Source: Psammoneis japonica (lineage: Eukaryota). Taken from it: 57,470 nt of DNA. The first letter of the stretch is position 1, and every line of letters begins with the position of its first letter. The notes below the pieces were generated by a model that worked only from the letters and a program-made list of their open reading frames with translations, did not search any database and was not told the origin of the DNA. Shown piece after piece: positions 7,457-56,300 of the stretch. Location: positions 186,001 through 243,470 of the forward strand of contig QPGO01000141.1 of NCBI GenBank assembly GCA_008632985.1. The letters are read 5' to 3'. The translations under genes and the position numbers were made by a program.

Positions 7457-9280
7457 GGCAATCGTCCAGCTGCGCAGGCAGCTCTTTATAAACTGTGCAG
7501 GAAATGTGCCAGGGTTTGTGTAGAATTTGACAATGACACAATTCCATTTTGACAGCGACAAGCAGAAACCCACATGGTTTTCCAGCACAAATTTGACAGC
7601 GACGCCACAGACGGAATCATTGTCAACGTGCCAATCACCGCATTGTTGTGGGTTTTCGATCACAGGGAATTCCTCATTTGGCGCTGAATTTCCAAGACAA
7701 GGAAATGCAAGAAAACAAGAAAAGGAAAAAATAATTAGTTGTTCAATGCGTGGTTGCAACCGTCATGAACCATTCATCTAGAAGTTGATTTGCACAGAGC
7801 CTGTGGCTGCCAAAACACCTCTTTTTGTGCAATGCACTCAATGAGTGAGGCAGACACCATTGGGAGGCACTTTCTCAAGGACAAAAAGATGTGCTTCCAT
7901 GTGGTCTCTTCAAATGCAATCTGCTCCAAGCAAGCCCACAAAAGCTCAAATTGGTGTGGCAAATCTGGCGCACATTGTGCAACAAAACAAAAGAGGAAAG
8001 CCTCTTTGTTTTCTTTGTTTAACAAGCCAATGAGGGGGAAATCAAGATGTGAGCATGAGCGGGGTTTTGGGTCATGGGGGGCTCCTTTCTCAACAGCCCC
8101 CAAATTTCCTCGGATGAAAGGAAAATTTCCCGCACTTGTTTGGTGCCAGTTGTGACCAACACAGTCCTTTCATCTTGCAGCCAATGTTGTGGTCCACTCA
8201 TCTCTGTTGGATGGCCAGCACAGAGCACAGCTGCTGCAGCACTTCAAGCAGCCCGCCACCATGTGGGGATCTTGGCGGCTGCTTGTCTCTTGTGCCGCAG
8301 ATGGCTCCTTTCCTTTTGCAATCATTTTTTCACACAGAGCTGGCAGAAATGCCATTTGACTGCAGTGGCACAGCTGCATGATGTGGCCCAATGCCAACAT
8401 CATGAGAGGAGGCCAGCACCCGCTGTGCTGGCGGTGGCTGGCTGGCTGGGCTGTGCCTCGCAGCTGGTCTTGCCAGCACAGCACCACAAACAAGCACATT
8501 TCCTTTGACACCAAACCACAGGAAAATGCGCTCTTGATTGCTTGTCTCTTGTGTTGCAGCAGGCAGATCCTTTCCTTTTGCACAGCCATTTTTCACAGAG
8601 AGCTGGCTGCTGGGTTGCCAAGCAACCTTGGCGCTGCTGCTCACAGGCACAGTGTGACAGCAGAACCTGACACCTGACTGCTGAAAGTCAGCCTTCAATC
8701 TGTCTAGTGCAAACTCAAATTGAAGTGCACAAGCTGTGAGAGCTGAGAGCCTGAGTCTTGTGGCAAAACCACGCAAAGGGCCTTTGCGTTTGCCCTGCTT
8801 GCTTGGGTTTTTTCCTGCTGTGCCTCTCTTTTCGCTGGCGCACTTGCCAAAGAGAAACAGCACAGCATGCTGATCATCAGCAATTTTGGCAGGAAAGGTT
8901 TGGCAGCAAAAACAGAACATTGGCTGTTGCTGTGCAAGTTGTGAAAATGTGCAGTCTGGGCAGCGGCACAGCTGCAGGAAGGAGCTTTTGTTGTTCATTT
9001 TTGGGTTTTCTCTTGTGTCTCTTGCAATTGACACACTTGTCACAGCAAAATGTGGATGTCATGCATTGACATTTTTGGCAGGAAAAGGTTTGGTGGCAAG
9101 ATCAAACATCGGTTGTTGCCGCATCATGGTTGGTTTGTTTTTGTCGCAGCAGCATGAATGTCGCAAAACGTCTGTCCATCGTACGTGCGAATTGAAAGCA
9201 TGGCGTTTTCTCCTCCCCTCCTCCTTTTCCTCTCTTTTTTTTCATAAACTCGGAGCCACCTACGTGACCGGACATGTGCC
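7457..9280. mobile_element. Non-autonomous or decayed DNA transposon, Merlin-like, 1.8 kb
   Basis: 8-bp target duplication AGCGTTCG (7449-7456, 9281-9288) and ~28-bp imperfect TIRs (GGCAATCGTCCAGCTGCGCAGGCAGCTC vs reverse complement of right end GGCACATGTCCGGTCACGTAGGTGGCTC). The empty site ccccAGCGTTCGggacaaag is present in the paralogous segment at ~24340. Confidence 0.85.
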
Positions 9281-9518
9281 AGCGTTCGGGACAAAGAAAA
9301 TGCTCAGCGCCATCCGCGAACGGACAAACACAATGATGATGTGTTTGCTTTTGTGTTTCTTCATGCCTTGCACTGCATGTTGTTCTGTCGCTGCATGTCA
9401 AGTGAACAAGCACCAAGCAGCGTGTGGTTGTCAGGAGCTTTTTCTCATCATTTTTCCACTGAGCTGCCAACAGATTGAATTCTCTTCACCAACAAGAACA
9501 GCAAGCGCACTCGATGAA

Positions 9519-9875
9519 GCTCTGCTGCATCTTGGCAGGCTGCTGGGCAAAGCTTGTGAGCTGTTGATGTGTGCCCGCCTCCACCCTTTGTGTTCTTGGG
9601 CAGATTTTTCTCAAAGAAAAAGTGGCAAGTTGCAAGGTGGCATTGATTGTCATGATTGCCACCCCAGCCTGGTTGAAATGTCTGCCCACTCTGCACCTTT
9701 CACAAGCTCGCTGACAACCACCCACATTTGGGCGGTTGAGGCATTGTCGACAAAAAACCCAGCTGCTGTGACACATTTCAACATTCACTGTCTCATTGAG
9801 TGTCACTCAACCCCGGTGTGTGGACACTCACATGTGCCAAAATGATCCGCAACAATTTGGAGAGACACCTTGGAC
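9519..9875 (+). pseudogene. PIG-B internal fragment copy 1
   Basis: Homologous to ~1463-1825 (ctcaaagaaaaagtggcaag..., HCLIECHSTPVCGHSHVPK vs HYLMGCHSTPAYSHLHVPK). Confidence 0.85.
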
Positions 9876-12444
9876 GTGAGTTTGGACCTGGTGTGTGTGG
9901 TGCATGCACGCTGCTGGCTTCTGAGAGAGCTCTGGCACACAACACATTGGGTGCTCCTGCTGCTCTCTGTTTGTTGAGCTTGCTGCCCTGTGCATTGCTG
10001 GAAGGAACAGAGTTTGGGTTTTTTCAAATTTCTCCCTCTGCCGCGCAAACACCACACACAACAGTCCAAAGCAGCGCTGCTGTCAATGACAAACAGATGC
10101 CAGCACACAAGCCCACACCACAAAAGCCTGCCACACATGCTTCTTCGCACACCCCTTTTTTGCAAAGCACCTGCTTTTTTGTGAGCCCTCCTGTTTTGGA
10201 GAGTCTGCAGAGAGCTTTGCTTCTCCTGCCTGTGAAAACACAGCTGCGCTGGGCTGGGCACTTTTTTGACACCTGAGGGGGGGGGCACCCTAGAAATGAA
10301 AACTTGGCTGTGGGTGCTCCAAGCAAGTCAACAACAAAACTGATTCTTTTTCTTCTGCTTGTGGTTGCTGGCTTGTCCGCTGTGCTTTGGGGGGAGTTCG
10401 GCCATGCACACAGGAGACAGCTTGTGTGAAGAGCTCTGCAGGCCCAATGTTGCGTGGAGACATGCCCAAGGTTGGCCAGAGCATGTCAACAGCAGCAGCT
10501 CAAATGGTGCATTTGAGCCCATGCTCAAACACTTTGACATGATCTCTCTGTGGATGTCGGTCAAACATTGAAAGATTTTGATGCCGTTGCATGTCCTCTG
10601 CAGATGCCACACAGAGAGCAGCAGCTGTGGCTGGCCCTGTGGCAGCTGCAGAGAGCTTGTCTTGAAGCAGTCAACAGAAGTGACAACTTTTGGTTTTTTT
10701 TGTGGCCAAAAGGGGAACATCACCAAAAACAACTGGCTGTGGTCATTTCAACAACTCATGCCCAGTTGAAGATTGTGGGCATGCACACGTGCGCTGAGCT
10801 GTTTGTGACCTTTTCTTTCAAAATGACTTCTCAATGTCCAAACATTGTCCCATGACATTTTTGCTTGTTCAAACTCCAGAGCCAATTTGTCCCCAAGTCA
10901 AGGGGGGCACTCAATTCCAGAGTGCCTCAATCTACAATCAGTTGACTCTAGATCCACACAACTCCGTGCATTCTCAATCTGGAGCTGTTTGATTCCAGAC
11001 GCCACACTCAAGAACTGTTTGATTCTGGATTGCCCCAATCTTGAGCTGCTCAATTCTGGATTGAAGTGACTGCTTTCATTTTCTTGCAAAGTGCAATTTG
11101 CCAAAAATGGAGGCACAAGCTTCCCTGACACAGAACAAAATGAAAAACATGCCAGACATTGTCAGCCCTCACAGGTGCAAGAAAAAGCACCAGCAGCATC
11201 AAGGGCAGCTCACCAGTTGCAACTGTGCATGGCACCAACATGTGCCAAGGATTTTGACAAAAGGCGCACAAACCCATTGACATCTGCTGCTGCTGCCGTC
11301 AATGTGCACTGCTTGCCGAAGTCTTCATCAAAAAATTCATCAACAACAGGCAGCTCACCCTTTTTCCCCTGGCCACACAGACACTGGGAAGTGTTTTTGA
11401 TGGGCGAGTCTCATCAACAAAGAGAGCTTGCTCTGGATGGCTCGCATGCCTTTTGCACACATCTCAAAAGCGCTGGGCCACTCATGCTCACATCTTTGTC
11501 ATGCTCGAACAGCCAGTTTTTCTGGAGAGCATGTCAAAGGCTGCAAATCCTTTGCTGAACTGCACTTGTGTGCCAAACTTTGCCAAGTTTGCATCTCATG
11601 CTGAGCTGGGTTTCATCAAGACATGGCAACGGCTTTTCCTCCAGCAAACCAGCAAAGACTTTGTCACAAGCAGATGAAAAGGTGGCTCTTTTGCCAACTC
11701 CTTGAAATCCATTTCTTCTCTTGACTGACCACACTCTCCTGCAAGTTTCTGACTGGTTTTCTCCAAATTTAAGGCAGTGAATAAACCAGCCACAAAACGT
11801 CCTGTGCAAAACATCCGATCGCAGGATTCCCATGTGGAGCACAGCTTCCCAACTTGTCGTCCATCACTGCTGGCACACAGGCATGGCAACAAAACACCCC
11901 TGAATTGCCAAGATCCATTGACTGTCTAGCTCAAACATGACAGATGGCTTTGCACACAAGCAAAAACAGATTCAGTGCAAATGGCTTGTGAGGCGGCACT
12001 TGTTGACGGCAGCAACAATTGATTTGTTTGCGTGCCATTTCTTTCAAGCCAACAAAATGGACACAAGTCCACACCTTTCTTTGTGATTGCTGCACCACTT
12101 TTTGCAAATGAAGAATCCTGTAAGACCGCGGATGATGGTTGCGGACGTACGATGGTGACTGTCGTTGGCAACGACGTCAGAGATGGCAAGTTGCTGTCTC
12201 ACTTGGTGCGATTCGGTGCACGACAAAAAAATTTTCTTTCGAACGCAGAGCCTGTGCGATTGATTCGCGGTTAGCGATTCGCGGTTCGCGATTGATTCGC
12301 GGTTCGCGGTGCACGACAAAAAACTTCTGTTCGAAGATAACAAAGATCTTGAATCTGTACATAATAATCACACTTCGATTCATTCGCACTTTCCCTGTTG
12401 AGTGACTGACACGAAGAGAGAGACCAATCGAGCTTCGACCGATC

Positions 12445-16405: not shown

Positions 16406-16972
16406 TGGTGTCACACCCACACTTTGAAGTTTTGGGCATGGGGATTTTGGCCAACCACTCATTTGGTGGATTTTCGCTCAACATGACGGCCACAGCATGC
16501 ATTTGCGTTGTTTGGCCACAGCTGTTTTTTTTTTTTGGCAAAGGCAATTTGAAAAATGACTTGATGTCATTTTGAAATTCTGTGTGGAGTGCATTGGAGA
16601 GAAAGAGGGGGGGGGGGAGAGTGTGGGGTGCATTGTGTGAGTGTGAGACAAACAACCACAGCACTCATTTTGCTTGATTCATCAAGCAACAACATGTCAC
16701 AAACAACCAACAGCAGTTTGTCCATCTTGGTTGTTGTTGTTGACACTCCATCGTGTTGAATTTTCAGCGAGCAGCGAGGAACGAGCGATGATTCGTGATT
16801 GGAATCGCACGACTAAAAACGTGGAGAGACAGACAGACTCACTTTTTCATTTTTGGACGCAAGCGGAAAATGCACCATGACACAATGAACGCGATGCACG
16901 GTCTGCAACAAAATGAACTGCAAAAACATGCAGCATGATTGATGCAAAAGGATGAAATGCAAAAATGTAGTT

Positions 16973-19900
16973 CTAATTGTCATTTACCGTGAATGCATGC
17001 GCACCGCCATTGGCACCAGAATAAAGCGCACCAACTCCAACGGTGCTTCCGTCGGCCGACAATGACACGGACCATCCAAAACGATCTTCCTCAGCCTCGC
17101 CATTTAAAGGATCGCCAACTTGCTTCCATTCGTCTGCATTGCTGTCATGCTGAAAGATTCGAACTTGACCCGCACTGACCAATCCATTGACGTCATGATA
17201 GCAACTTCCGACCGCCACGACGTTTCCATTGCCACTCAATGACACCGACCATCCAAAAAAATCGCCACGCTGTTGTGTCAATAGAGTTTGGCCACGTTGA
17301 CTCCACGTCAAAGTCGAGCGGTCGTACGAATAAACTAAAACCCGCTCGTTGTTGCCAAAAGGTGCACCCGCGGCCACGATCAAACCGCTGTCGTCAAGAG
17401 AAAGAGAATATCCAAACCAACCATTAAAGACTTGTCCATTGATTGGACTACCCAACATATCCCATTTTGAAGAGGCAAAATTGTATTCATACACCAACAC
17501 TTGACCTGCCCAGGGTCCTCCCAAATCATTGACATTTGCTCCAACACCAACAATGGATCCCTGCGCATTTAAGGAAACGGAAACACCAAAACGAACATCA
17601 GCGGCTTGGCCAATGAGTGTTTGTCCGAGTTGGTTCCAGGATGAGGAGCCGCGGTCATATTGAAACAATCGAACCGATCCAGAATCAAGGCCATTTTCTG
17701 TGTCAGCCCACCGCGCTCCCACGGCAAGAACGTCTCCCGCGTCCGAGAGCGACACGGAAAAACCAAAATGATCATAAGCGTTTTGTCCAAGAATATCGCT
17801 ACCGATTTGGACCCAACGATTTGAGGCAGAGTTGTATTCAAACACGCGAACATGGCCGGCATCCATTCTGCCACTGTCATTCTCATTAGCTCCAACAGCA
17901 AGAATTGTGCCGTCGCCATTTAATGAAACAGACTCGCCAAAATCGTCGCCGCCAGTTTGTCCAATCAATTTTTGGCCAAATTGTTTCCATTGTTGGGTGC
18001 TTGGATTGTATTCATTGATAACAACATAGCCGGGTCTGAGAGAAGACAATGCTTGATCCGCTCCAATAGCCATGACATTACCATCGCGAGACAAGGATAC
18101 GGAACTGCCAAAATCATCATTTGCATCGTTGCCGTGCAAGTCTTGTCCAACGGGCTGCCACAGGCCGTCTGGCAGTGTAATGATTGGCGTAGGAGCTAGC
18201 GTTGTCGAGGGTGGTGACTGGAGATCTTGTGTCGGTGAGTTTGTCGGCGTGGGTGTGGGTGGCAAGGTCGGGTTTGGTGTTATCTCTCCAATGCTAACGC
18301 TATCAAGGTTGTCAAAGACGTCATTGACCCTAGCTTTGCCGGCTTCTCGAAGGACCTCTACATAAGCAATTCTTCTGGAGGACGTCCTGAATGGTTCACT
18401 GACCAAGTAGTCAATTGAAACGTTATCGTCCTTGATTGTATAAGTGAAAGTTTGATTATATGTAACGAGCAAAGACGAATCAGTACCCTTGTCAACACCT
18501 CTTACAACAGTTGTGTTTACCACCTGCAGTATGGTTTCAACATCTTCAACTTTGGTAGTTTGTAAAAAGCGCAATAATCGACGTCGACGACTATTGAAAA
18601 AGTCCTCGGCATATCTCTTTGTCGTGGATGTCCATAAATCTGTGTCGTCTGCATCAAACACTGATTCCAAAGCAACCAAATTCATGACCAATCCGGTTGT
18701 ATATTTTGTGGATTGCTCTAGAGGTGGAGGCGGTCGCGTAGCCATAATAGTGACGGTGACGATCACAGCAATAATGGCCAATATCGTAGCTCCTCCTATT
18801 CTAATGAAGCGTATGCGACGGCGCTCAATGTTGCGATCGACATCACTGTCAAGAGGAGCTGCTTCCTCGTCGACTGGAGGTAGCGTATCACGAGATTTTG
18901 AGACATCGACCTGGGGTTCGCCATCCATGCCATTAGCCTCAATGGGGGAAGCTAGGCTCTTCAACTCGGATGATACCAATAGATCGGGCGACGCATTGCC
19001 CCGTCCGTAGCGATCGCGACCTATCTCAGACAGACATTTGTTCTTGATTGAGGTCAAAGTCACTGGGAAAACAACCGGGAGCGGACCGTTGACCTTCTCC
19101 AGTAAGTCATCACTGTCATATTGACAATTTTCTGACAAACAAAGGCAGCTCACAGCAATGACAACTCCAAAACTGTACTGGTCAACGGTGTAAGTGTACA
19201 TTCTGTCTCGTGCAGATGACCCAATCCCGATAGCTCTAATTTCGGGTGCCATGTAGTACCATGTACCCGCCACAGAACCTGCCAGAATACTGGAAGCACT
19301 GTCTATCTTTCGAGCAGATCCAAAATCGGAAAGCTTGGGAGTGAAACCATGGTCTAGTAGGATATTTCCTGGCTTGATGTCACGGTGAATGATCCGACGT
19401 TGATGGATGTGTTCCATCCCGAGAGCAATTTGGTAGAATAGCTGGATCACCGCATAAGTAGAGACACTGTCATTTTCACAATCATAGCCTTCCATTTGAG
19501 ATCTCTTTGATTCATCTCGCAGAAAATCTTCCAAAGATCCGAAAACCACATATTCCATTGCGATGCAAAGAGTGTCTTCCAGACGGGTCAGACCGACAAT
19601 ATTTGCAACGAAAGATGAGTCGGAGCAGCGCTCATGATTTACGAACTCATCTAGCGCTTCACCACCATCTTGGACATTCGGTTTCTTTATCGCAATCGGT
19701 TTCTTTATTGCAATTGCCGCACCTTTATATTCCGCCTTGTAAACGATACCAAACGAACCCCTTCCTATTTCTTCGCTGCGAGTGATTTCGTCCTCTTTGA
19801 TTTCACGGGCACGAGAAATGATATCCAAGAGCTTCTCTCGATTTTCCTCCTTTGCTTTAGCAAGCTTCACAGCCGGACTATTCTGAAGATGGTCATTGAG

Positions 19901-20458
19901 ATCCCCGTGGCCTTGTATGTAGAGAAGAAGTACGTCCACCTTTTCCTTGATGACTTCGAGGTCGTCCTCCACAAGCTCGGAATGTAAACACTGTTGCTGT
20001 CCCTGCTGTTGATTCTGCGCAACAAGAATCTGAACAAGACCCATTAATTCATGCTCGAACGCCCTACTTTCGGCTCGAAAGTCAAACTCAAAATCAAACT
20101 GAAAATCATCACGGCACTGACTTAGACCAGTGCTGAGACTACTGTACTCATCCAGCAAAACACGATGAAACACCATCTGCCTCAGAGTGGATTCCTTCTG
20201 AAGCTTGACAAAGTATGCCTCGGTGCGATCCAACAGTTTCTGAAATGCCACGATATGACTCTCTTTCACAGTAGCGGAAGCATTTTCTTCCTTCATGTAT
20301 TGGAGCCTGCGTTCGAACATTTCGACACGATCTCTTAGGATCTGGGCCAAATCTGGAAAGGTCTTGACATCCTGATACGCCCTGTAGACGTTATAGATCT
20401 TCCCAGCTACCAAGTCAGTAGCACTCGCGACCGCTATTACAAAACCCGCGGTATCCAT
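16973..20458 (-). CDS. Receptor-like kinase with inverted topology: MLKL/HeLo-like helical N-domain, TKL-type kinase, TM, SEA-like domain, PT stalk, FG-GAP beta-propeller (1161 aa)
   Basis: Intact ORF with kinase motifs GRGSFG, AIKK, HRDIKPGN, DFG and GTWYYMAPE. TM IGGATILAIIAVIVTVTIM follows RRRIR. Repeated FGxSVSL..DG..LAVGA blades. Confidence 0.9.
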   Translation of the reverse strand: MDTAGFVIAVASATDLVAGKIYNVYRAYQDVKTFPDLAQILRDRVEMFERRLQYMKEENASATVKESHIVAFQKLLDRTEAYFVKLQKESTLRQMVFHRVLLDEYSSLSTGLSQCRDDFQFDFEFDFRAESRAFEHELMGLVQILVAQNQQQGQQQCLHSELVEDDLEVIKEKVDVLLLYIQGHGDLNDHLQNSPAVKLAKAKEENREKLLDIISRAREIKEDEITRSEEIGRGSFGIVYKAEYKGAAIAIKKPIAIKKPNVQDGGEALDEFVNHERCSDSSFVANIVGLTRLEDTLCIAMEYVVFGSLEDFLRDESKRSQMEGYDCENDSVSTYAVIQLFYQIALGMEHIHQRRIIHRDIKPGNILLDHGFTPKLSDFGSARKIDSASSILAGSVAGTWYYMAPEIRAIGIGSSARDRMYTYTVDQYSFGVVIAVSCLCLSENCQYDSDDLLEKVNGPLPVVFPVTLTSIKNKCLSEIGRDRYGRGNASPDLLVSSELKSLASPIEANGMDGEPQVDVSKSRDTLPPVDEEAAPLDSDVDRNIERRRIRFIRIGGATILAIIAVIVTVTIMATRPPPPLEQSTKYTTGLVMNLVALESVFDADDTDLWTSTTKRYAEDFFNSRRRRLLRFLQTTKVEDVETILQVVNTTVVRGVDKGTDSSLLVTYNQTFTYTIKDDNVSIDYLVSEPFRTSSRRIAYVEVLREAGKARVNDVFDNLDSVSIGEITPNPTLPPTPTPTNSPTQDLQSPPSTTLAPTPIITLPDGLWQPVGQDLHGNDANDDFGSSVSLSRDGNVMAIGADQALSSLRPGYVVINEYNPSTQQWKQFGQKLIGQTGGDDFGESVSLNGDGTILAVGANENDSGRMDAGHVRVFEYNSASNRWVQIGSDILGQNAYDHFGFSVSLSDAGDVLAVGARWADTENGLDSGSVRLFQYDRGSSSWNQLGQTLIGQAADVRFGVSVSLNAQGSIVGVGANVNDLGGPWAGQVLVYEYNFASSKWDMLGSPINGQVFNGWFGYSLSLDDSGLIVAAGAPFGNNERVLVYSYDRSTLTWSQRGQTLLTQQRGDFFGWSVSLSGNGNVVAVGSCYHDVNGLVSAGQVRIFQHDSNADEWKQVGDPLNGEAEEDRFGWSVSLSADGSTVGVGALYSGANGGAHAFTVNDN

Positions 20459-21082
20459 CTTGAAACAGTCGATAGAGAAAACAACTTTTGGGTCTTGTCA
20501 CCTCTACCGCATGAAGTTGCTTTTGGGGTTGCATCCGCGACTCCCTCTTTGTTCGTGCGAGAAACTTCAACACCGGTAAACCCCTTCGTAGCATCCACAA
20601 GGATCCGAATCCATGCTCGTAAACACCTGCGTGTCAAGGAGTTTCAAGTTGACGTCAGCGTGACGGAGGCTTGGCAGGCAAGCATCATCTGAATGACAAT
20701 GAATGGAGCACACGATGTGGTCCAAGGCTTTGGCTTCACAGAGTCTGTGATGAGCAGATTGCTACATGAAGCTGAGCCTTTCCATTGTCTAGTCTCCTTC
20801 TTTCAGAACCGCCATCATCCATCATGGTCACTTCTGTTTGAGGGTCGGAGGGAGGTTTTGTGGAAGATCGCGTCGCGCGGCACAGCTTCAATCAACGCAT
20901 GGAGCGCGCGGCCACCGGGCTTGAGCATCAGAAAAGCACACGCAACCACAGTGCATCGCCGCCACAAGCTCGAGCCATGATAGTTATCGAAACGAGAGTC
21001 TATGGCGGAGCGCGATGCTCATGGCTGGCAGAAAGACCAAAGTTGAAAGACAAGCAACAAAGCGACTGTCGAAGCCACCTGC

Positions 21083-24000
21083 CAGTTGTTTGCAGAGAAT
21101 CCAAAAGCAGATCCTGAATCCACGCCATTGCTGTTGTGTCCATTCGACGCACCAACTCCAACAGTCTTTCCGTCTGCCGACACAGACAATGACCACCCAA
21201 ATTTTTATCTCCTTGAGCCTTGCCATTCAAAGGATCACCCACCTGCTTCCATTCATTGGTGTCAGTGTCATGCTGAAAGATTCTAACTTGACCCGCATTG
21301 GCCAATCCATTTGCGCCATGCTCTTTGCTTCCAACTGCCACCACATTTCCATTTCCGCTCAACGACACCGAGTGTCCAAAATCATTGCTTGGCTGTTGGG
21401 TTGGCAAAGTTTGCCCACGCTGTTTCCATGCTGAAGAATCGTGATCATGGAAGCATGCCAAAACTCTTTCATTGCTTCGCAGCAATTAAATTTTTCTGTT
21501 CAGTGCCAGCAATGCTTGCATTCCCGGTGATCTCGTGAGCTGTGTGCATGATGATTTCCTGCCAAAACATGATCACATCTGTGAGTCGTGTCATGATGGA
21601 CCCGCCCAAAAAAGAGGTCATGTCTGTGAGTCATGCAAACAAAAACCCAAGCGCACACAAGGCACGTGAAATGAAACAACCCAAGACAATGCACTGCATG
21701 GAATGCACACAACAGAGCCGTTGTCCCATGTGGCATTGTGAGAAATGAAAAAGAACGCTTCTGGCCAAAAGTGCACAGCATTGTGCCAAATCCACTGTGA
21801 TGTCTCCCAAGCATTTGACGAACATGTTCCATTGTTTTTCTTGTGACAATTGGAGCAGCAAATTTCATGTGGAGATTTAATTTTTTTCGGGCAAGATGAT
21901 GCATCTCTACAGCACAAAAAAACACCACCACCTAAAGGTTTGACTGTGCACCAGAATTTTCATTTTTTGTGCTGACACATGAGGAGCCAGTGCACCCAGA
22001 GGCAGCTTTCAAAAAAAGTGTGGCACCAAATTCTGTGGCTCAAATTTTGTTGCAAGGTTGCAGGAAGTCATTTGGCACAGCAATGAGAGGAGAGCTGAGC
22101 TGCAGAGCAGCAACAAGATGTCCAAGAGATGTGCTTTCAACACAGCTGGAATGCTTGAGGACAACACATGAGATTTTCTGCATGTTTCTGCACAACACAC
22201 ATTGTTTGCACTGCACCCACATGGAAATCTCAAGCACCTGAGTGCAGACATCATTTTTTTCATGCACCAATCTGGCAACAATCACAAATCATGCAAACCA
22301 AAAATGGTGTCATGCCACCAACATCAAATTGTCAATTTTTGCACCAATTGTCAGAATGACATTCGTCAACACATTCATCAATCAACTTGATGCCAAACAA
22401 TTGTAAAGAACAATGTGTTTGTTGACACGTTCCTTGTCAACCAACTTGACCTGCCAAATGATGGCAGTGACTCTGGCCCTGGCAACAACATGGCCAGGAG
22501 GATTGGAGCAAGACAAATGTTGACTCGCTCCAACAGCCATGACATTGCCATCACGAGACAAGGAGACGGATTCACCAAAACTGTCTTCTGCAGCTTTGCC
22601 GTGCAAAACTTGACCAACAGGATTCCACATGGGTGTTGGAGTGGGGCGTTGAGTTGGATTGAGCATTGGACGAGGCGTTGGATTGAGAGTTGGATGAGGC
22701 GTTGGACTGAGAGTTGGACAAGGAGAGGGGTTCCCCATTGGCAATGCTGTTGGATTGCGGGTTGTTGGACCTGGAGTCGATGGTGGCGACGCGGGATCTT
22801 GTGTTGGCGGTTTTGCAATGGGAATGCTGTTTGCAGGAGGCGGGCGTTGGAGCAGCTGTGCCAGTTGAGACTTCACCAGTGCCAATCAAATTGTCAAAAG
22901 CATCGCTTCCGGCATTGGCACCCACCGCCTGGAGGTCATTCACGTGGGCCAACCTCCTTGCTGATGTCTTGAATGGCTCGGTCGCCATGGCATCCATGGA
23001 AATGTTGCCGTCACTGCTGTCGTCAGAAGCACACATGACAGCCTGATTGCATGTGATTTGAAGGGAGGATTCTCCATCACCCTTTTCTTGAACCACAACA
23101 GTGTTGGTGACCTCCAAAGTTGTCTTGACGTCTTGCACTGTTGATGCTTGTAAGTTACAAATCAACAATTCACCAAGGCCACGTTGATGACGAGTGTTGA
23201 AATGATCCTCGACGAATGCCTTGGTTGCCATGGCCTGCAACTCGGAATCGTTTTCTTCAAACTTGGCATCTAGACCAATCAAATGCATGACCAAACTGGT
23301 GGCTTGTTCGGCAGTCTCAGTGGCGGGTGCAAATGCAGGTGAAACCGCAGGGCTGCCTCCACCACCAGCATCCCACGGCTTTGCTGCAATGACAACCCCG
23401 ACAATCGCAGCAATGACCAATGCGATGACACCAAGAATTTTGAATCGTTTGTGAAGGCGCTCACAATGAAGCTCCTCTTCAGCACTCTCATTGTCTTGAT
23501 CAATGCGCGTTGTTTCATTTGCTTGTTCATTCCATCCAACACCACCATCAGCAGGAACCCCCTCTACAACTTGTGCCTGGTGAATCCCTGCTTCAAGCAA
23601 AGCAAATCGTTCCAGAAGAGCTGCAACATTTTCAGTTTCTTCTGCCAATCGAGCTTCGACGAGTGGAGCACCACCATTGTCAGTGCCAGCAGAATCATCT
23701 GGAGGAGGAGGCATTGAATCATTGGACCGCATCATTTCGGGTCCTGACAAGAGAGAAACATTGTCATCAGCGTTCCTTTCTCTTCGTTCCTCTGGTTCTC
23801 CTGGCCCAATGGCAATGGCACCAGCAGCATCTGCATCTACACCTGCAATGTCAGATGTTGAGTTTGAGGCAGTCATGGCGCCGATGTCGTCATCAGCACA
23901 ATCCAATTCAACAAGCAGTTGTTCTTCTTCTTTTTGTTCTTCAACCGCAAAGGCTTCTTCTGCTTGTTGCTGCTCTTGACGGCAGCGATGGGCAGTTTTT

Positions 24001-24170
24001 TGTTTCTTCTTTTTCTTGTGAGAAGCAGCGGTGGCCGTTTCTCCCCCGCAGGAATTGTTTTGTCAAATTCTTCCAGTTGTTGCTTCTCCTTTTCGTCATC
24101 CTTCAAGTTGCCGCAAACACCACGCCTGTCGCACATGTCATCAGTGTTGTTGTTGTTGAACGATTCACGA
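21083..24170 (-). pseudogene. Chimeric FG-GAP family pseudogene
   Basis: The 3' part (21083-21480) copies the end of gene 43256-46012. An unrelated insert occupies ~21481-22483. The 5' part (ORFs 22382-22885 and 22572-23906) resembles 4320-7282. Confidence 0.85.
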
Positions 24171-24568
24171 TTCATCACGGGGGTGAGCAACTCTACAACA
24201 AGAAAGATGCATGGACAAACCACCAACAAACAGCCACAATCCACAAGCCACACAAGTGAGAGGTTTGTGATGCCGCAGATGCAAGTTCTGAAGACAAGCG
24301 CACTTGAAGCACAAACGATGAACGCGGATGCGCACTCCCCAGCGTTCGGGACAAAGAAAATGCTCAGCACCATCCTCGAACGGACAAATGATGATGTTTG
24401 CTTTTGTGTTTCTTGCATGTTGTTCTGTCACTGCATGTCAAGTGAACAAGCACCAAGCAGCGTGTGGTTGTCAGGAGCTTTTTTTCATCCTTTTTGCACT
24501 GAGCTGCCAATGGTTTGAAATCTCTTCACCCACCGTGTCACCAACAAGAATGGCAAGCACTCGACAAA

Positions 24569-24920
24569 GCTCTGTTGCATCTTGGCAGGCTGTTGGGCAA
24601 AGCTTGTGAGCTGTTGATGTGGGCCCACCTCCATCCTTTGTGTTCTTGGACAGATTTTTCTCAAAGAAAAAGTGGCAAGTTGCAAGGTGGCATTGACTGT
24701 CATGATTGCCATGACCCCAACCCAGTTGAAATGTCTGCTCATGCTGCACTTTCACAAGCTCGTCGACAACCACCCATTTGGGCAGTTGAAGCACTGTTGA
24801 CAAAAGCCCCAACTGCCTCAACACAATTCAACATTCGTTGCCTCATTGAGTGTCACTCAACCCCGGTGTGTGGACACTCACATGTGCCAAAATGCCCCCA
24901 ACAATTTGGAGACCTTGGAT
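24569..24920 (+). pseudogene. PIG-B internal fragment copy 2
   Basis: Same fragment as 9519-9875. Confidence 0.85.
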
Positions 24921-25279
24921 GTGAGTTTGGACCTGATGTGTGCAATGCATGCTCACTGCCAGCTTCTGAGAGAGCTCTGGCACACAACACATGGGATGCT
25001 CCCACTGCTCTCTTTTTGCTGAACTTGCTGCCCCATGCATTCCAGGAAGCAACAGAATTGAGATTTTTCAAATTTCTCCCTCTGCCAAAACACCACACAC
25101 AGCGACATGTCCAGGGTGCAGCCATTTCCCCATTGTCACTCGCACCTTTACATCAATGAGGGTGCAGTCTCATCCAACAACAAGAAACAGATGCAGTGCG
25201 CAGCTGCAGCTCCTCAACTGATGGAGCACATTGTTGAACGAAATCAATGGCACCCCTCCGTTTTGCTGACTTGATTGAT

Positions 25280-26347: not shown

Positions 26348-27934
26348 TCATACAGCAGTGTATCCGCTAAACCGCACCTTCACATGATCGCATAGTTCCT
26401 TGAACTCCCTTTCCATGACCTCCGGTATGTTATAGAAATCAGCGGCAGCAAAGTCAATCCAGCACGGTCTTTTGTTCACAGAAACAACGTTCTCAAGTCT
26501 GGCGTCTCCGTGGATAATCCCATTTTCGTGCAGTCTTTTCAACGAGTCTACAATGGACTGAGGAGCGAGTCTTGAGAAGTGGTCACCCACCTCGGACATG
26601 AGCAACGCGGCACCATTTTCAAATACATTAAAACAGTCCTCTTCCAATCCCATGACATCGTCTGGACACAATTGTTTTGCTCGGAGCATCTTTTCCTTTT
26701 CGAATGACAGTCGTTCAATGTTCTTATCTGGACCACCGTAACCGTAATTCTTCAGAACAATCTTCAGCGCTACGTTCACGCCATCCGCTCGCTGAGCACG
26801 GAAAACAAAACCAAAGGCACCCGACCCCAAGAAGGAATTCGACGAAACAGTCAGGTTGAAATGCGCACAGGCATCTTTCAATAGATTTGGTAACGCCGTT
26901 TCTGGAATGAAATCCAGCAGCAGGCGTTTCGATCCACCTTCATCCCATGCGCACGTCGTCACACACGATATGGTTCCTTTGATGCTTTCCACAAGCCAAA
27001 ACACGCGCTTATCAAAGAGAATCAATCTCGTCGACACCGATCCATGGTCTCCAAAGCAAATATGGGCTCCGTAATTGATCACTTCACCGAAAGCTTGATT
27101 GTCTATGGTCTGTTTTGCCTCGCATGTCAGACCGATGTATTCGCGCAGCTTCCATTGGGAGAGGATGCCGAACTGGTCACTCGTCCTTCTCATAGCTTTC
27201 AAAGCTTCGTCCTTGTTGCATTTGAAAGGTGGTTTAATGTCAACCAAGGCTGGATGAATGATAATCAGGTCAGGTTTTTCGTTGTACTTAGACGTCTCAG
27301 AGGTGGTTTTGATCCACTTGTACTCTTCTGAGTTGATAACAGCCGAACTGACATGGTCTCGGACGATATCTTCTAGAAAGGGTGTCATAAAAGACACTAC
27401 TTGATGCTCGTTTTGCATTTTAGACAATGCTGCCATTTCCTCCGCCGTAAGCACACTTGCCTCGTCGGCTGTTCCTTTAAACTCAACGAAGCGTTTTGAT
27501 AAGACCAGTCTGTGCCTTTCCTTGTTTCCAACAAATGCCGCCGAATAATGTGGGGTCGCCCTGTCGGTGTTCTGAGTAGCAACTAGAATTTGATCAAGTT
27601 TCCGGGTAATATCTTCCGTGGAAGACTCGATCTCTGGGTGCAGCGGAGGGCGACCGTGCTGCTGCTGGCGGTGGCGATGTTGCTGAGGAGAATTGACGAT
27701 GAGAGGTACCCTGCTTGTTGTTTCAGATGGCACGTTCTCGCCAGGGTCGAGACATTCGTTCTTCTTCGGATCCACGCCCGCAGCGAAGACGTTGAGCTCC
27801 GGCGCCGAACAGGGAAGACGGTCGCCCCATTCTGTCTTAATCTTTTTCTTCAGATCGTCCACATCAGCGTCATCTTGCAATTCCACCTTGGAAGGTGGAG
27901 CTTCATCAAGCTTGTACCAGACTTTAATTGTCAT
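26348..27934 (-). CDS. Crinkler (CRN)-like protein: ubiquitin-like header, PD-(D/E)xK restriction-endonuclease-like domain, protein kinase (528 aa)
   Basis: From ATG 27934: header VWYKL...DVDDLKKKIK...PELNVF...LDPGENVP..TT...PLIV; nuclease-like EKPDLIII...CEAK...FGEVINY; kinase LGSGAFGFVF, VALK, HGDARLEN, WIDF. The upstream ORF extension to 28390 runs into a stop-depleted repeat. Confidence 0.8.
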   Translation of the reverse strand: MTIKVWYKLDEAPPSKVELQDDADVDDLKKKIKTEWGDRLPCSAPELNVFAAGVDPKKNECLDPGENVPSETTSRVPLIVNSPQQHRHRQQQHGRPPLHPEIESSTEDITRKLDQILVATQNTDRATPHYSAAFVGNKERHRLVLSKRFVEFKGTADEASVLTAEEMAALSKMQNEHQVVSFMTPFLEDIVRDHVSSAVINSEEYKWIKTTSETSKYNEKPDLIIIHPALVDIKPPFKCNKDEALKAMRRTSDQFGILSQWKLREYIGLTCEAKQTIDNQAFGEVINYGAHICFGDHGSVSTRLILFDKRVFWLVESIKGTISCVTTCAWDEGGSKRLLLDFIPETALPNLLKDACAHFNLTVSSNSFLGSGAFGFVFRAQRADGVNVALKIVLKNYGYGGPDKNIERLSFEKEKMLRAKQLCPDDVMGLEEDCFNVFENGAALLMSEVGDHFSRLAPQSIVDSLKRLHENGIIHGDARLENVVSVNKRPCWIDFAAADFYNIPEVMEREFKELCDHVKVRFSGYTAV

Positions 27935-28198
27935 GTGATGGGTTTGCAGTCCGGTAGAGTGTCTGAGGGACAGGTTGTTTCGTTTGCTGTCGTTGCTGTC
28001 GTTGCTGTCGTTGCTGTCGGTGATTTTCACGTACCATGCAATATCCATGATGGCGTCACCCGTCGATGCCCGTCGACGCAAGACGTTCGCATCAATCCGG
28101 ATTGATTGACGCAGCAAGGTCTCCTCGTGTAATCGTCCCAATGCTAAAATAACGTGTGAAACTCTAGCATTGTGAGCGAGGAGCATGCATGCCGCATG

Positions 28199-28606
28199 TT
28201 CAACAAATGAGTGAACCTTGTCATGAGCCTCTGCCAGTGAGGTCTTAGGCACCTTTGTGGCACCAGCAGCAGCAAACAGCAAAGTGATGCTCATCGAGAG
28301 AGAGTGAGAGGTGCTGAGATGACCCACTCTCAAGTGAGCCACAAAACTGGGAAGTTGTGTCATGCCACAGATGCCTTCTAACAGGGACAACAGAGATGTT
28401 CATGCAATGATGCAATCTCCCACATCAACATCAATGATGTCACAATGGTGCACTCACCAGCCATGATGGCCCATGAGGCATTTCCATCAACACAAAAAGC
28501 ACGAGAAATTCGGATGGATGACGAACGAGCAAAAAAGATGTTTCACTCAAATTGTTCCAGTGTTGTCCCCCCTGCTGTTCATAGAAATGCATGCAGCGAG
28601 CCGCAG
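28199..28606. repeat. ~405-bp direct repeat, copy 1
   Basis: Near-identical to ~30195-30597. Confidence 0.9.
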
Positions 28607-43255: not shown

Positions 43256-46012
43256 TTAGTTGTTTACTGAGAATCCAAAAGCAGATCCTGAATCCACGCC
43301 ATTGCTGTTACGTCCATTCGACGCACCAACTCCAACAGTCTTTCCGTCTGACGACATGGACAATGACCACCCAAATTCATCTCCTTGAGCCTTGCCATTC
43401 AAAGGATCGCCCACCTGCTTCCATTCGTCGGTGTCACGGTCGTACTGAAAGATTCTAACTTGACCCGCATTAGTTATTCCATCTACGTCATGCTCTTTAC
43501 TTCCAACTGCCAACATATTTCCATTGCCACTCAACGATACCGAGTGTCCAAAATCATTACCTGGCTGTTGGGTCAGCAAAGGTTGCCCAAGTGATTTCCA
43601 TGCTGAAGATTCGTGATCATGGGAGTATACCAACACTCTTTCATTGCTTCGTGGTGCACCCACTGCCAGGATTGAGCCACTGTCATCAAGAGAAATCGAA
43701 TATCCAAACTCACCACGAACGACAGCTCCATCGATTGGATCACCGAATGGCTCCCATGAAGAAGATTTGTATTCATACACCAAGACCTGACCGGCATCCT
43801 CCCCCGCAGAATCATTTCTATATGCTCCAACGGCAACAATACTCCCTGAGCGATTCAAACAAACGGAGCGTCCAAATCCAGCATCGGCGGCTTGGCCGAC
43901 AAGTGTCTGTCCAAGCTGATTCCAACTTGAAGTACTAGGATTGTATTGAAATAACCGAACCGATCCAGAACGAAATGATCCCACGGCCAGAGTATCTCCC
44001 GCATCCGACAGAGAGACGGAAACACCAAATCGATCACCAGCCGCTTGTCCTTCAATTTTGTTTCCGTGCGGGTCCCATTGATCTGTGGAAACATTGTATC
44101 GAAACACTCGGACCATACCGGCATTGTGTCCACCGCTGTCGTTCTCATCGGCTCCAACCGCAAGAATCGTTCCGTCGCCATTTAACGACACGGACTCACC
44201 AAAATCGTCACCCCCCTTTTGTCCGAGTAATTCCTGGCCAGTACGGTTCCATGTTTTAGTGTCACGATTGTATCGATAGACCGACACGTAACCAAAAAAT
44301 ATCGAATTCGCCTGAGAGGCTCCCACTGCCATTACAGTTCCATCTCTCGACAACGAGACGGAATGACCAAACGAGTCTTTTGCCGCGTTACCATGCAAGA
44401 CTTGTCCCAAAGGCTGAAATGTAAGGTCTGGCAGAGGCCCAGGTGGCGTGGGAGACAGGGTAGAAGGTAATAACGTTGGCTCGAGCGTCGTGGGTGGCAT
44501 GGTTGGGGTTGGCAATGGAGTTGGTGTTGGAGAAGGCGTCGGAATTGGTGTCGGTGGACGTGTAGTAGGGGGCGGTGTCGAAGCAGTGGGAGAAGGAGTA
44601 GCGGGCGGTGTTGTTGGTATTGGCGTCGTTGGGCTTATCGTTGAGGGGCTCGTAGGAGGTGGAGTACTCAAGGTAGGAACAGGTGTTGGATTTGGCGTTG
44701 ACTTTTGCGTTGGTGCACTCGTCGTAGGGGATGGAGTGGCAGACGTAGGAACAGGAGTAGGGTTTGGCGTTGGCTTTTGCGTCGGTGAACTCGTCGTAGG
44801 GGTTGGCGTAGCAGTGGTTGAAACTGGAGATGGGTCTGGCGTTGGCATCGGCGTTGGTGATTCAGTAGTTGGAAGTGTAGGAGCAATGCTTGGTGTGGTA
44901 GATATCGAAGCAGACTGCGAAAGAGTTGGCTCTGGTGTGGGAGATGAATTTGGGCTCGAAGTTGGCGTTGGAGGCGGTGATTCAGGATTACTTGTCGGGG
45001 ACATTGTAGGCATTGCGCCGAGCGTCATGCTAACTGCAGTCAATCCATCAAAAATGACGTTTCCTGAAGCCTTACCAGTTTCTGTCAGGTCGTTTGCATA
45101 TGCATTTCTAGATACATCAGTCCTGAATGGCTCGGTCACCAAGCGGTCAATCGAAACGTCGTCGCCCTCGAAAGTATACGTAACAACTTGGCTGTAGGTG
45201 ACAAGCAAGGATGAGTCCGTGCCGTTATCACCAGCCTGTACAAGATCAGTATCAGTTACTTCCAATGTAATTTCAACGTCTTGAACATTGCTTATTTGTA
45301 GCAATCTCAGCAACCGACGTTGGCCACTGTTGTAAAAGCCCTCAACATATTTCTTGGTTGTAGTGGTCCATAGTTCCGTATCAGCTGCATCAAACTCTTT
45401 CGTTACACCATTCAAAGTCATTTCCAGTCCCGCTGTTTCTTTTGTTGTCCTGCTCTCGTTATTGCCACCGTCACCTCCACCACCGGTCACTGCAATAACA
45501 ATACCGACAATCGCTACAAGGAGCACTGCTGCTGCTATTCCTAGACAAAGGCGGCGCTTAGAGCGAGGCTGAGTCGTCTCCTCTTCTTGTTCCTCCGCGT
45601 TATGATGGTAATAACTAAAGAGAGACTTGAGTGAACTAGGTACACGAAACATAATGTTTCGCTCATCATCATCATCGGTCTCATCCTCAACGCGTGTCGT
45701 ATTTACGGGTTCTGCCACTTGTGTTTCCACCAACAAGGGAGGAACTGCTACCTGACGTAAATGTCGAATTTCTTCTTCAAGTCGAGCAGCCTCCTCATCC
45801 GTTACTTGAGCAAGCTCTGCTTGAACCACAAAAGCGCCTTGTCCATTGCTGGGCGTGCTGGAGGATGGTTCCGAAAAGAATGTAACATTGTCGGGATCTT
45901 GTCCTGCTCTTGGAATAGCTTGTCCGTGTTGAATGGCAAACGCACCAGCGACCGGACCTTCCGGGTCCCATGCCAGTTGTTCTTGTTGCTCTTGTTGTTT
46001 CTCTCGTCTCAT
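43256..46012 (-). CDS. Type II membrane protein with SEA-like domain, long Pro/Thr mucin-like stalk and FG-GAP beta-propeller (~918 aa), intact
   Basis: Intact ORF with [33 protein letters not shown], a ~190-aa PT stalk and six to seven FG-GAP-like blades. Tyr are retained. The start could lie slightly upstream. Confidence 0.9.
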
Positions 46013-53510: not shown

Positions 53511-53743
53511 CAATCACTTTGTTCGTTATACCGGCATTTGGTTCGCCATACTGCCCACCTTTTAACGATACAGCCCAACCAATTCGTGGACACTACGACT
53601 CCACGGTTGGTTAGCGGGATTGCATCGATAGTAACAATATAACATGGCCGATCGGATCAAAATCGTCCCTTGCTGCTATTTGCGATACAAAACTACATCT
53701 GCAGCATTATTGACACCAATGCATGAAATACAAAAATACAGTT

Positions 53744-56300
53744 CTAATTGTTGTTTACCGTAAATGCATATGCGGATCCGGACTTGTCGCCATTGACGTC
53801 AGCATTCCGTGCACCAACTCCAACGAAGCTTCCGTCGGCCGACAAGGACACGGAATGTCCAAACCAATCACGTTCAGCCTCGCCATTTAAAGCATCTCCA
53901 ACTTGCTTCCATTCGTCTGCATTGACGTCATACTGAAAGATTCGAACTTGACCCGCTCGATACATTCCATTGACGTCATGCAAACCACTTCCGACCGCCA
54001 AGACGTTTCCATTGCCACTCAATGACACTGAGTAACCAAACTCATCATCAGACTGTTGTGTCAAGAGAGTTTGGCCACGTGGATTCCATGTCAAAGTCGA
54101 GCGGTCGTACGAATGAACCAAAACCTTCTCGTCGTTGCTTCCAGGTGCATCCGCGGCCACGATCAAACCGCTGTCGTCAAGAGAAACAGAATATCCAAAT
54201 TTACCATATTCGACTTGGCCATTGATTGGGTCACCCAACAGATCCCATCTTGACAAGGCAGAATTGTATTCGTACACTGACACTTGACCAGCATTGTTTC
54301 CACCCGAATCATTTCTATATGCTCCAACGCCAACAATGGTTCCCTGCGCATTCAACGAAACAGAAATACCAAAACGATCATCAGCGGCTTGGCCAATGAG
54401 GGTTTCTCCGAGTTGGTTCCAGGACGAAGAGCCGCGGTCGTATTGAAACAATTGCACCGATCCAGAATCAGAGCCATTTTCCGCGTTGTCCCAATGCGCT
54501 CCCACGGCAAGAATGTCTCCAGCGTCTGAGAGCGACACGGAAGAACCAAATAAATCACCAGCGTCTTGTCCAAGAATGTCGCTGCCGCGTTGGACCCAAT
54601 GATCCGATGCCGAGTTGTATTCAAACACCCGAACGTGACCGGCATTCGATCCGCCACTGTCATTCCATGGAGCTCCAATGGCAAGAATCGTGCCATCGCC
54701 ATTTAACGAAACAGACTCTGCATAATCGTCGCCGCCAGCTTGTCCAGTCAATTCTTGGCCAATTTGTATCCATTGTTGGGTGCTTGGATTGTATCGATTG
54801 ACCTCAACGTAGCCGGGATTGGAAGAAGATTGTTGTTGATCTGCTCCAATCGCCATAACACTTCCATCACGAGACAAGGAGACGGAATCGCCAAAATTGT
54901 CATCTCCCGCTTTGCCGTGCAAGATTTGACCGACGGGACTCCACGTCCCATTTAGCGGCAAACCACCACCACTGGTAGAATTGGGTGTTGGAGCTTGAGT
55001 TGTGGGACGTGGAGTAGGATTGAGCGTTGGCGGAGGCGTTGGCGGAAAACTAGATGGAGTGGTGGGGGCTGTTGTGGAAGGTTGGGTAGGTCTTGAAGCG
55101 GTAGGAGCCACAGTAGGTGGAGGAGTCGGGTTGACCGTGGGAGATGGCGTTGGCTCTTTTGTGGAAGACGGAGTCGGCGTGGGTGTCGGAGCTAATGTCG
55201 ATGGAGGCAACGTCGGATCTTGTGTCGGTGAGTCTGTCGGAGATGGAGAGGAAGGATTTGGTGTATTTGATTCCATGCTAACGTCAGTCAAGTTGTCGAA
55301 AACGTCCTCGCCTTGAGCCATACCCGCGTCCTGTAGGCCGCCTGCATATGCCATTCTTCTGGCAGACGTTCTGAATGGTTCACTCACCATGTGATCAATA
55401 GAAACGTCCTTGTCTTCGAATGTATACGCGAATGATTGGGTGTACGTAACAAGTAAAGAGGGACGAGTGCCATTGTTGCCACCTCTTACGACGTTTGTGT
55501 CGGTTACACCCAGTTCAGTTTTGACATTGTAGATGTGGCGGTCGCTAAAGAGCGAAGCAAGCGGCGTCGGCGACTGCTGTAAAAGTCCTCAACGTATTCC
55601 TTGGTCACGGCAGCCCACAAATCCGAGTCGTTCGCATCAAACACTGCGTCCAAACCAATCAAATCAATGACCAATCCGGTAGCTTGTTTGATCGACTGCT
55701 CGCCGCTTGCTCCGCCATCGTCCCAGGGCTTAACTCCTACAATAACACCGACAATCGCAGCAATAACTAAAACAACAACTCCTCCTCCGATGATGTAACG
55801 TTGGCAACGTCTCTTCTTTTCCCCATCAATGGATCGTCACCTTTCGTGTTGATCGACGCCAGTTGGGTCGGGCGGTGTTCGGCATCATCAGAAGCCATGA
55901 GGACAGGTTCCGCAACCTGGGCTTGAGCCAAAGGAACGGATCGGCGAAGAAGAATGTTTTCTTCTTGGAGTCGAGCCACTTCTTCATCCGTCACTTGAGC
56001 AAGCTGAGCTTGGACAAGTAAATCGCTTGGATTGCGAGTGCTGGGCGCTGGAACAGAGGGATCAACACTCTCGGGCTCCGACATGAGTGTGACAATGTCA
56101 GGATTCCTTCCAGCTCTCGGTACCACGCCATCACGATTGACTGCATATGCTCCAGCTGCAGGAGCTTCTTCCGTGTCTTGATTTACCTCTTGACCTTCTT
56201 GAACCGTCTCTTGTTTCTCCTCCACCACACTTCTACTGTTCCCACGGCTTTCATAGGTGTCATCCCAAATCGTGGTCGGCGGCTTGTTGGAACGGTCCAT
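53744..56300 (-). CDS. TM/SEA-like/PT stalk/FG-GAP membrane protein with two frameshifts (~55830 and ~55540); young pseudogene or assembly errors
   Basis: ORF 55767-56300 (AAGAYAVNRDG, LLVQAQLAQV), a middle frame (RCQRYIIGGGVVVLVIAAIVGVIVGVKPW...DFYSSRRRRLLRSL) and ORF 53744-55390 form the full family architecture. TpA and Tyr are retained. Confidence 0.8.

Follow-up and report, generated by a model that had tools for sequence, protein, structure and literature searches.

A putative type II receptor kinase with an FG-GAP propeller and a candidate MLKL/HeLo-like head in the diatom Psammoneis japonica

Can a single diatom protein combine a surface sensor, a kinase and a helical domain of the kind that acts on membranes? 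The question is raised by a gene at 16973..20458 on the minus strand of a 57,470-nucleotide stretch of the Psammoneis japonica genome (GenBank assembly GCA_008632985.1, contig QPGO01000141.1, positions 186,001 to 243,470 of the forward strand), which was analyzed as a whole and is referred to here as the window. The gene consists of an uninterrupted frame of 1161 codons that begins with the residues MDTAGFVIAVASATDLV and holds no stop codon between residues 1 and 1161. The nearest ATG 5' of the start codon, the sole one nearby upstream, runs into a stop after two codons. An open frame of 3.5 kb cannot be a product of chance. The original prediction placed a helical N-terminal domain, a linker, a kinase, a membrane helix and a C-terminal, presumably extracellular propeller in this order, and Pfam, hydropathy and the motif scan all agreed with it. 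Judged from sequence, the gene product is a putative type II receptor Ser/Thr kinase, single-pass and N-in/C-out, and its layout is new. Whether or not it is linked to MLKL, a type II receptor kinase that carries an integrin-like propeller has a layout unusual for eukaryotes. For the reading as a whole, namely such a receptor kinase with a probable distant MLKL_N/HeLo/SesA head, an origin by tail swap and an action on membranes, we put the chances at about even.

Architecture of the kinase-bearing protein

Residues 223-490 (18989..19792; all domain coordinates of this gene refer to the minus strand) form a complete eukaryotic-type Ser/Thr kinase of tyrosine kinase-like (TKL) type, as identified by Pfam, by motifs and by alignment with P0002, a homologue described below. 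The Pkinase family (PF00069) was matched at residues 227-436 with an E-value of 1.7e-38 and 133 bits (cut-off 31.7). The motif scan located the G-loop GRGSFG at 232, AIKK at 250 and 256, HRDIKPGN at 358, DFG at 378, APE at 404, DQYSFG of subdomain IX at 426 and RDRYG of subdomain XI at 481, and the alignment with P0002 also extends through subdomain XI. The nearest solved relatives in the PDB were EGFR, IRAK4, SOBIR1 and CTR1, and the kinase was therefore regarded as similar to TKL and receptor-like kinases (RLKs). The beta3 lysine motif, IAIKKP, is doubled by an in-frame 18-bp tandem duplication at 19678..19714 (Tandem Repeats Finder; 2.1 copies, 94% match), which inserts six residues directly after the beta3 lysine. 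P0002 and a second homologue, P0122, are single-copy at this position, and the duplication may be recent or polymorphic. The kinase had been called intact-looking. This holds for its catalytic motifs, every one of which is present and from which the domain looks catalytically competent, but has to be qualified for the doubled beta3 motif.

A Kyte-Doolittle scan of the whole protein, with a cut-off of 1.6 for a membrane span, revealed one hydrophobic segment above that value at residues 551-576 (18731..18808). It is flanked by RRRIRFIR before and PPPLEQS after, the 15 residues on its N side holding six arginines and its C side being nearly free of positive charge. By the positive-inside rule, these arginines on the N side place the N-terminal 550 residues in the cytoplasm and the stalk, linker and propeller outside, so that the segment is predicted to be a single transmembrane helix with N-in/C-out orientation. 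At 1.29, the first 19 residues are moderately hydrophobic and do not reach the value required of a membrane span. Between the kinase and the membrane, residues 491-550 (18809..18988) form an acidic, probably disordered cytoplasmic juxtamembrane linker that ends in the arginine-rich flank, as indicated by its sequence and the flank charges. The inverted topology of the original prediction was thus upheld, with the kinase N-terminal to the sole membrane helix, the positive charges on the kinase side and the propeller predicted outside. The signal peptide, N-terminal ectodomain and C-terminal kinase that define a type I receptor kinase are not what was found, as the kinase precedes the only membrane helix.

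Just outside the membrane lies a predicted extracellular stalk domain of about 150 residues (577-725; 18284..18730), which pairwise alignments revealed to be common to the paralogues described below and for which no Pfam match above noise was obtained. It conserves the patterns TGL.M.L, D.ELW..TTK.Y.E.F.NS.RRRLL and LV.EPFRTS. A Pro/Thr/Ser-rich linker recognizable in the sequence (residues 726-762; 18173..18283) joins the stalk to a seven-bladed FG-GAP_2 beta-propeller (residues 763-1161 with the stop codon; 16973..18172). The latter was assigned from a Pfam match to FG-GAP_2 (PF14312) in the C-terminal third of the protein (E 2.5e-28, 98.5 bits, cut-off 23) and from seven FG..S.SL blades found by motif scan with starts at 783, 840, 898, 957, 1015, 1068 and 1127. 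FG-GAP_2 propellers of marine bacteria and diatoms were 33-43% identical over about 60% of residues 540-1161. The named eukaryotic relatives of the ectodomain belonged to the diatom Cyclostephanos (e.g., P0194 and P0209 of Cyclostephanos tholiformis), and no kinase family was present among the best 120 ectodomain relatives listed.

The same window contains eight more FG-GAP loci, every one on the minus strand, which were identified by tblastn of the whole protein against the window. All matches to these loci begin at residue 540 or later, and pairwise alignments to the paralogues are solid only from about residue 583, just past the membrane helix. Since paralogue matches begin no earlier, the N-terminal cassette (residues 1-539) is unique to one copy in the window. 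The claim that a kinase and a helical head stand in place of the usual tail of the family is therefore borne out, residues 1-539 being unmatched at all eight other loci. The description of that usual cytoplasmic tail as short, on the other hand, was not: paralogue tails measure about 150-230 residues, as in the open reading frames 22572..23906 and 43256..46012 (minus strand). The latter encodes an intact kinase-less paralogue of 918 aa that consists of a cytoplasmic tail of about 155 residues, a transmembrane helix, the stalk, a long Pro/Thr linker and the propeller.

Selection on the ectodomain was estimated as the ratio of non-synonymous to synonymous substitution rates (dN/dS). This ratio was 0.44 against the copy at 53.7 kb (477 codons, dS 0.44) and 0.26 against the copy at 43.3 kb (686 codons, dS 1.43), while the propeller alone gave 0.52 against the closest copy (53.7 kb). 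Across paralogues, dN/dS was 0.26-0.52 at dS 0.32-1.4. By these estimates, the ectodomain of the kinase-bearing copy evolved under constraint.

The helical head and its relatives

Residues 1-125 (20084..20458) comprise four predicted helices and represent a candidate MLKL_N/HeLo-like domain on the basis of low-confidence AlphaFold2 (AF2) models, Pfam and the ESM Atlas. In the AF2 secondary structure of these low-confidence models, residues 1-222 were all-helical. For residues 1-215, modelled with a three-sequence alignment, helices were obtained at 3-30, 35-57, 62-88 and 96-119 (predicted local distance difference test, pLDDT, 45.3), and for residues 1-540 a single helix spanned 3-57 (pLDDT 31.5) and the kinase itself was left unfolded. 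Helices 62-88, about 96-119 and 127-183 were predicted in both low-confidence runs. Residues 126-222 (19793..20083) carry an FDFEFD/AE..AFE.E..GL motif conserved with P0122 and P0002, followed in the AF2 models by the long helix 127-183, part of which is Q-rich, and by shorter helices at 189-217. This region may, as far as the models go, be a brace-like connector to the kinase; its sole Pfam match, Zmiz1_N, was at chance level. The structure of MLKL follows the order four-helix bundle (4HB), brace, kinase, and the helix pattern of the first AF2 run (four helices, a long connector, then the kinase) corresponds to that order. The head begins at residue 1 and displays the N-terminal position and the hydrophobic or amphipathic first helix that characterize the superfamily, helix 1 being the most hydrophobic of the head (mean Eisenberg 0.25).

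HeLo, HeLo-like, SesA and MLKL_NTD make up a single four-helix-bundle superfamily whose individual members match differing MLKL-related profiles, according to the accessible part of Wojciechowski et al. (PMC9815663). The N-domains of the window protein and its two homologues were scanned against 24,736 Pfam models at E-values up to 10. The top match of residues 1-130 was MLKL_N (PF22215; E 0.0076, 16.2 bits, residues 23-111 against profile positions 10-100 of 142), followed by SesA (PF17107; E 0.024, 15.2 bits versus 26.3, residues 17-87 against 7-77), whose E-value ranged from 0.024 to 0.053 across scans. P0122 also matched MLKL_N (E 0.011, 15.7 bits versus 27, residues 16-113 against 8-102), and P0002 matched HeLo (PF14479; E 0.031, 14.5 bits versus 23.2, residues 4-86 against 3-94). 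No match to HeLo-like (PF17111) was obtained in these scans. All MLKL_N, HeLo and SesA matches of the three homologues are in N-terminal register and start within the first 23 residues. In addition, a feature search of the ESM Atlas with residues 1-215 returned as its first two clusters ones that carry MLKL_N (0.86 with 174 of 256 shared features and 0.84 with 169), scores below 0.9 being leads only; MCAfunc and RPW8 clusters appeared lower in the same list.

Several results weigh against an MLKL-like head. The 16.2 bits of MLKL_N fall short of its gathering score of 27, and no MLKL-related match reaches a gathering score. Unrelated helical families were matched equally weakly alongside (HbrB at E 0.015, Tubulin_2, Zmiz1_N, RIN1, Pfc11 and MitMem_reg), which indicates that helical composition inflates the E-values. 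The ESM Atlas search was uninformative when run with P0122 (0.81, no family), and confidence was low in both AF2 models. Against the reading as a whole, the kinase bears a six-residue duplication at beta3. A Foldseek search of the PDB with the pLDDT 45.3 model returned no match at E <= 0.001, its top rows being ESCRT-III CHMP1B at E 0.09, an outcome that is meaningless for a model of this quality. A profile of the three N-domain sequences retrieved no MLKL, HET-s or NLR coiled-coil chain from the PDB at E-values up to 10. The sole PDB match of that N-domain-only profile was EzrA (E 0.015), and a profile including the kinase gave overwhelmingly kinases. Finally, hhalign of the three-sequence N-domain against RPW8 (PF05659; 19 Rosaceae sequences of narrow diversity) gave a probability of 0.55%, both profiles being thin. 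A complex prediction for two copies of residues 1-215 gave no answer (score 0.02) and counts neither way. Two comparisons to which the original prediction had looked, by Foldseek and with RPW8, thus failed to return the expected relatives, and its proposal of an MLKL/HeLo-like head keeps the sub-threshold Pfam matches and the first ESM Atlas clusters on its side while the fold-level tests were uninformative or negative. On balance, we consider it rather probable that the head is a member of the MLKL_N/HeLo superfamily.

The cassette was also sought in other proteins. A word-indexed search with residues 1-520 yielded 2750 kinase-bearing matches. Among the matches listed, only P0002 (700 aa, 38-40% identical) covered 92% of the query, and all others covered at most 59%. 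In P0002, the same N-domain is followed by a complete kinase (HCD replacing HRD) and by a strong membrane segment at about 561-585, beyond which a Pro-rich region leads to an outer sequence unrelated to the FG-GAP ectodomain. When 1.84 billion cluster representatives were searched exhaustively by phmmer with residues 1-215 (E <= 0.001), three proteins only were retrieved, namely P0122 (E 4.1e-25), P0002 (E 3.4e-22) and P0123 (E 1.9e-5). P0122 is a 310-residue fragment that holds the N-domain and the beginning of the kinase. The N-domain family therefore has three known members: the window protein, P0122 and P0002. Since P0002 possesses the helical domain, the kinase and the membrane helix with a different outer part, the cytoplasmic module recurs; as far as these predicted proteins allow, N-domain, kinase and membrane helix together are a rare recurring module with differing ectodomains. 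Joined to an FG-GAP propeller, the module was encountered in the window protein only.

P0123 was rejected as a family member, being a tandem-repeat protein of 636 aa with about eight repeats that matches residues 121-181 only. Its FRFEFEARHSF-type motif, present in eight stretches, resembles the FDFEFDFRAESRAF junction of the N-domain, and the match was judged a motif-level coincidence. P0085, the sole FG-GAP-bearing protein among 120 listed kinase matches, was likewise discarded as an analogue, as it has the opposite order of FG-GAP_3, TPR and a C-terminal kinase. The window's own protein was absent from the results of both the word-indexed search and phmmer. Further family members were sought by pattern in metagenome contigs (593 matches), viral contigs (385) and prokaryote genomes (306), and none was confirmed in any of the three.

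Known systems and the surrounding array

In MLKL and the MLKL-likes, the parts come in the order predicted for the window protein: a helical bundle of about 120 residues at the N terminus, one or more helical connectors and a kinase fold. The head of the window protein, however, lies below every family threshold in sequence similarity. MLKL proper is a soluble pseudokinase licensed by RIPK3, whereas the window protein is predicted to be membrane-anchored, with a large extracellular propeller as a built-in sensor. It keeps the G-loop, beta3 Lys, HRD, DFG and APE that speak against a pseudokinase, and its membrane helix 551-576 and 585-residue C-terminal part are at odds with a soluble protein. 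Heads of the 4HB/HeLo type joined to kinases or pseudokinases have been described in animals, plants and fungi, in the available portions of two sources (PMC12881547; bioRxiv 10.1101/681015). The former reports necroptosis-like 4HB modules in three kingdoms and fungal HELL-kinase proteins, and the latter plant MLKLs. With the HeLo, HeLo-like and SesA domains of fungal HET-S, HELLP and NLRs, as presented in the accessible text of PMC9815663, the head has in common the N-terminal position, the hydrophobic first helix, the four-helix prediction and the sub-threshold matches. Those fungal domains are tied to amyloid motifs or NACHT/NB-ARC and activated by templating or oligomerisation, and are not receptor-fused as here.

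Another lineage with a fusion of a 4HB-type head to a kinase was encountered in Rosaceae, where 8 of 20 proteins with an RPW8 head (PF05659) also carry a kinase (P0247, P0250, P0251, P0253, P0254 and P0256-P0258). Here too a membrane-targeting helical head is N-terminal to the kinase, but the Pfam lists of these proteins include no membrane helix or ectodomain, unlike the window protein. The bacterial Hanks-type kinases PknD and PknB have a cytoplasmic N-terminal kinase, one membrane helix and a C-terminal sensor, which in PknD is a beta-propeller. The topology predicted for the window protein recalls theirs, but this protein adds a helical head, is part of a eukaryotic array and has a kinase that is nearest to eukaryotic TKL, RLK-Pelle and IRAK kinases by its solved relatives. 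Type I receptor kinases, such as plant RLKs, animal receptor tyrosine kinases and stramenopile transmembrane TKL kinases, also combine, within each chain, a TKL-type kinase with a single membrane helix and an ectodomain. Compared with them the window protein is reversed, with no signal peptide, an N-terminal kinase and a C-terminal ectodomain. Expanded FG-GAP families are found in Pirsonia, a stramenopile parasite, without kinases so far as the available text reports (PMC13524835).

The remaining FG-GAP loci of the window lie at approximately 2.5-3.4, 4.3-6.1, 14.6-15.3, 21.0-23.9, 37.7-41.6, 43.3-46.0, 48.4-50.9 and 53.7-56.3 kb on the minus strand (tblastn), and several array copies are truncated or split. 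The closest ectodomain paralogue (53744..56300, minus strand) is spread over several frames, through introns or breaks, and the 3' end of the kinase-bearing gene (16929-18161) is 82.5% identical in DNA to 53700-54944. A truncated paralogue adjoining the gene (20979..25103, minus strand) forms a recent segmental duplication together with 37665-42564, the two arms being 92.6-95% identical with an indel of about 750 bp. Each arm holds an FG-GAP paralogue in truncated form, without the middle blades. An additional common element (82-85%) is present at 9279-10694, 24339-25101 and 41797-43165. The array was thus assembled through segmental duplication.

Other genes occur in and around the array. A 680-aa frame within it (26348-28390, minus strand) gave a near-threshold match to the Crinkler N-terminal (ubiquitin-like) domain (E 3.2e-4, 21.9 bits versus 24.6). 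A short, atypical kinase-like stretch with GSGAFG, HGDARLEN and IDF (Pkinase E 2.3e-5, below the cut-off) is present at the C-terminal end of this frame. From these matches the frame appears to be a modular protein of the Crinkler (CRN) type. The array is flanked by genes for a TLC-type ATP/ADP transporter (51977-53224, plus strand; E 2.7e-114) and an Alg9-like mannosyltransferase (822-2252, plus strand; E 8.4e-46), neighbours that fit a plastid-bearing stramenopile.

Alternative explanations and proposed working

The main rival to a receptor kinase with an MLKL/HeLo-type head is an ordinary type II signalling receptor kinase, in which the head, unrelated to MLKL/HeLo, would be a regulatory or oligomerisation domain specific to the lineage, the output would be substrate phosphorylation only and the family matches would be composition noise. 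We hold this to be possible, if somewhat doubtful. It would account for MLKL-related matches that are all sub-threshold amid chance-level helical ones, for the lack of a 4HB relative by PDB profile search, RPW8 hhalign and Foldseek, and for a kinase that, unlike MLKL, keeps every catalytic motif. Membrane-anchored TKL kinases, moreover, arose repeatedly in stramenopiles, as stated in the available part of PMC3019232. What speaks against it is that three homologues return MLKL_N, MLKL_N, HeLo and SesA in the same N-terminal register, with MLKL_N at the top of all the models scanned for residues 1-130, that MLKL_N clusters also come first in an independent language-model search, and that the helix count and the position ahead of the kinase suit the 4HB-brace-kinase layout.

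Less likely than the plain signalling receptor are two explanations that concern the gene itself. The cassette is present in one of nine FG-GAP loci, the array is rich in segmental duplications and truncated copies, an 18-bp duplication falls within the beta3 lysine motif and the protein is missing from both protein collections searched, all of which would be expected of a recent chimeric by-product of array rearrangement, with a kinase gene fused by chance to an FG-GAP copy and now neutral or decaying. Such a chimera is improbable in our view, given a 3.5-kb frame that remains intact despite an ectodomain dS of 0.32-1.4 from the paralogues (dN/dS 0.26-0.52) and the retention of all kinase motifs. 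The layout of a kinase followed by a membrane helix is, furthermore, common to P0002 at only 38-40% identity and is therefore old. It is harder still to believe that the single frame conflates two genes, one for the kinase and one for the membrane/propeller part, which would be made as separate transcripts or split by splicing. The paralogues function, if at all, without a kinase, which would suit this explanation, but the frame runs from residue 1 to 1161 without a stop codon, P0002 has kinase and membrane helix in one predicted protein, and similarity to the paralogues starts only at or after the membrane helix, which would leave the ectodomain part without a tail and start of its own.

For the preferred reading, a type II receptor kinase with a distant MLKL_N/HeLo/SesA head, the following origin and working can be proposed. 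A cytoplasmic cassette, perhaps together with the membrane helix, would have taken the place of the tail in one member of a tandem FG-GAP surface-protein family. Binding of a ligand to the propeller, or clustering of the propeller, would gather the kinases, which would then autophosphorylate in trans. Phosphorylation might detach the helical bundle at the N terminus from both kinase and brace, and the hydrophobic first helix of the freed bundle could enter the inner leaflet beside the protein's own anchor. Insertion of the bundle would lead to an influx of cations (Ca2+) or to cell death. The original prediction had likewise envisaged a sensor, kinase and executioner in one piece, for which the kinase-less paralogues might serve as co-receptors or decoys. 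The activation and membrane action of the head are inferred here by analogy with MLKL and with plant and fungal 4HB proteins as described in the accessible sections of PMC12881547. That one polypeptide indeed senses a ligand, licenses itself through its own kinase (and so does the jobs of both RIPK3 and MLKL) and opens a cation-permeable lesion by its own anchor is, as a complete chain of events, unlikely.

When diatoms are attacked by viruses, parasites or chemicals, their Ca2+ bursts and programmed death shape blooms. To our knowledge, no MLKL/HeLo-type executioner has been named for diatoms, and no paper tying MLKL or HeLo domains to diatoms was found in the open-access library searched. 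If the head is what it is proposed to be, diatoms would join animals, plants and fungi as eukaryotes that possess a membrane-attacking module of the MLKL/HeLo type, here built into a receptor at the cell surface, and a stramenopile member would widen the three-kingdom range of 4HB modules set out in the available text of PMC12881547. Anchored in the membrane and furnished with an active kinase and an ectodomain, the 4HB module would be coupled to a sensor in a new way, and a single protein would lead from recognition at the surface, be it of a virus, parasite, bacterium or mate, to cell death or a Ca2+ burst. Without the link to MLKL, a receptor kinase in an unusual orientation remains. The kinase-bearing copy would, in addition, offer an approach to the question of what is recognized by the large families of FG-GAP surface proteins in these algae.

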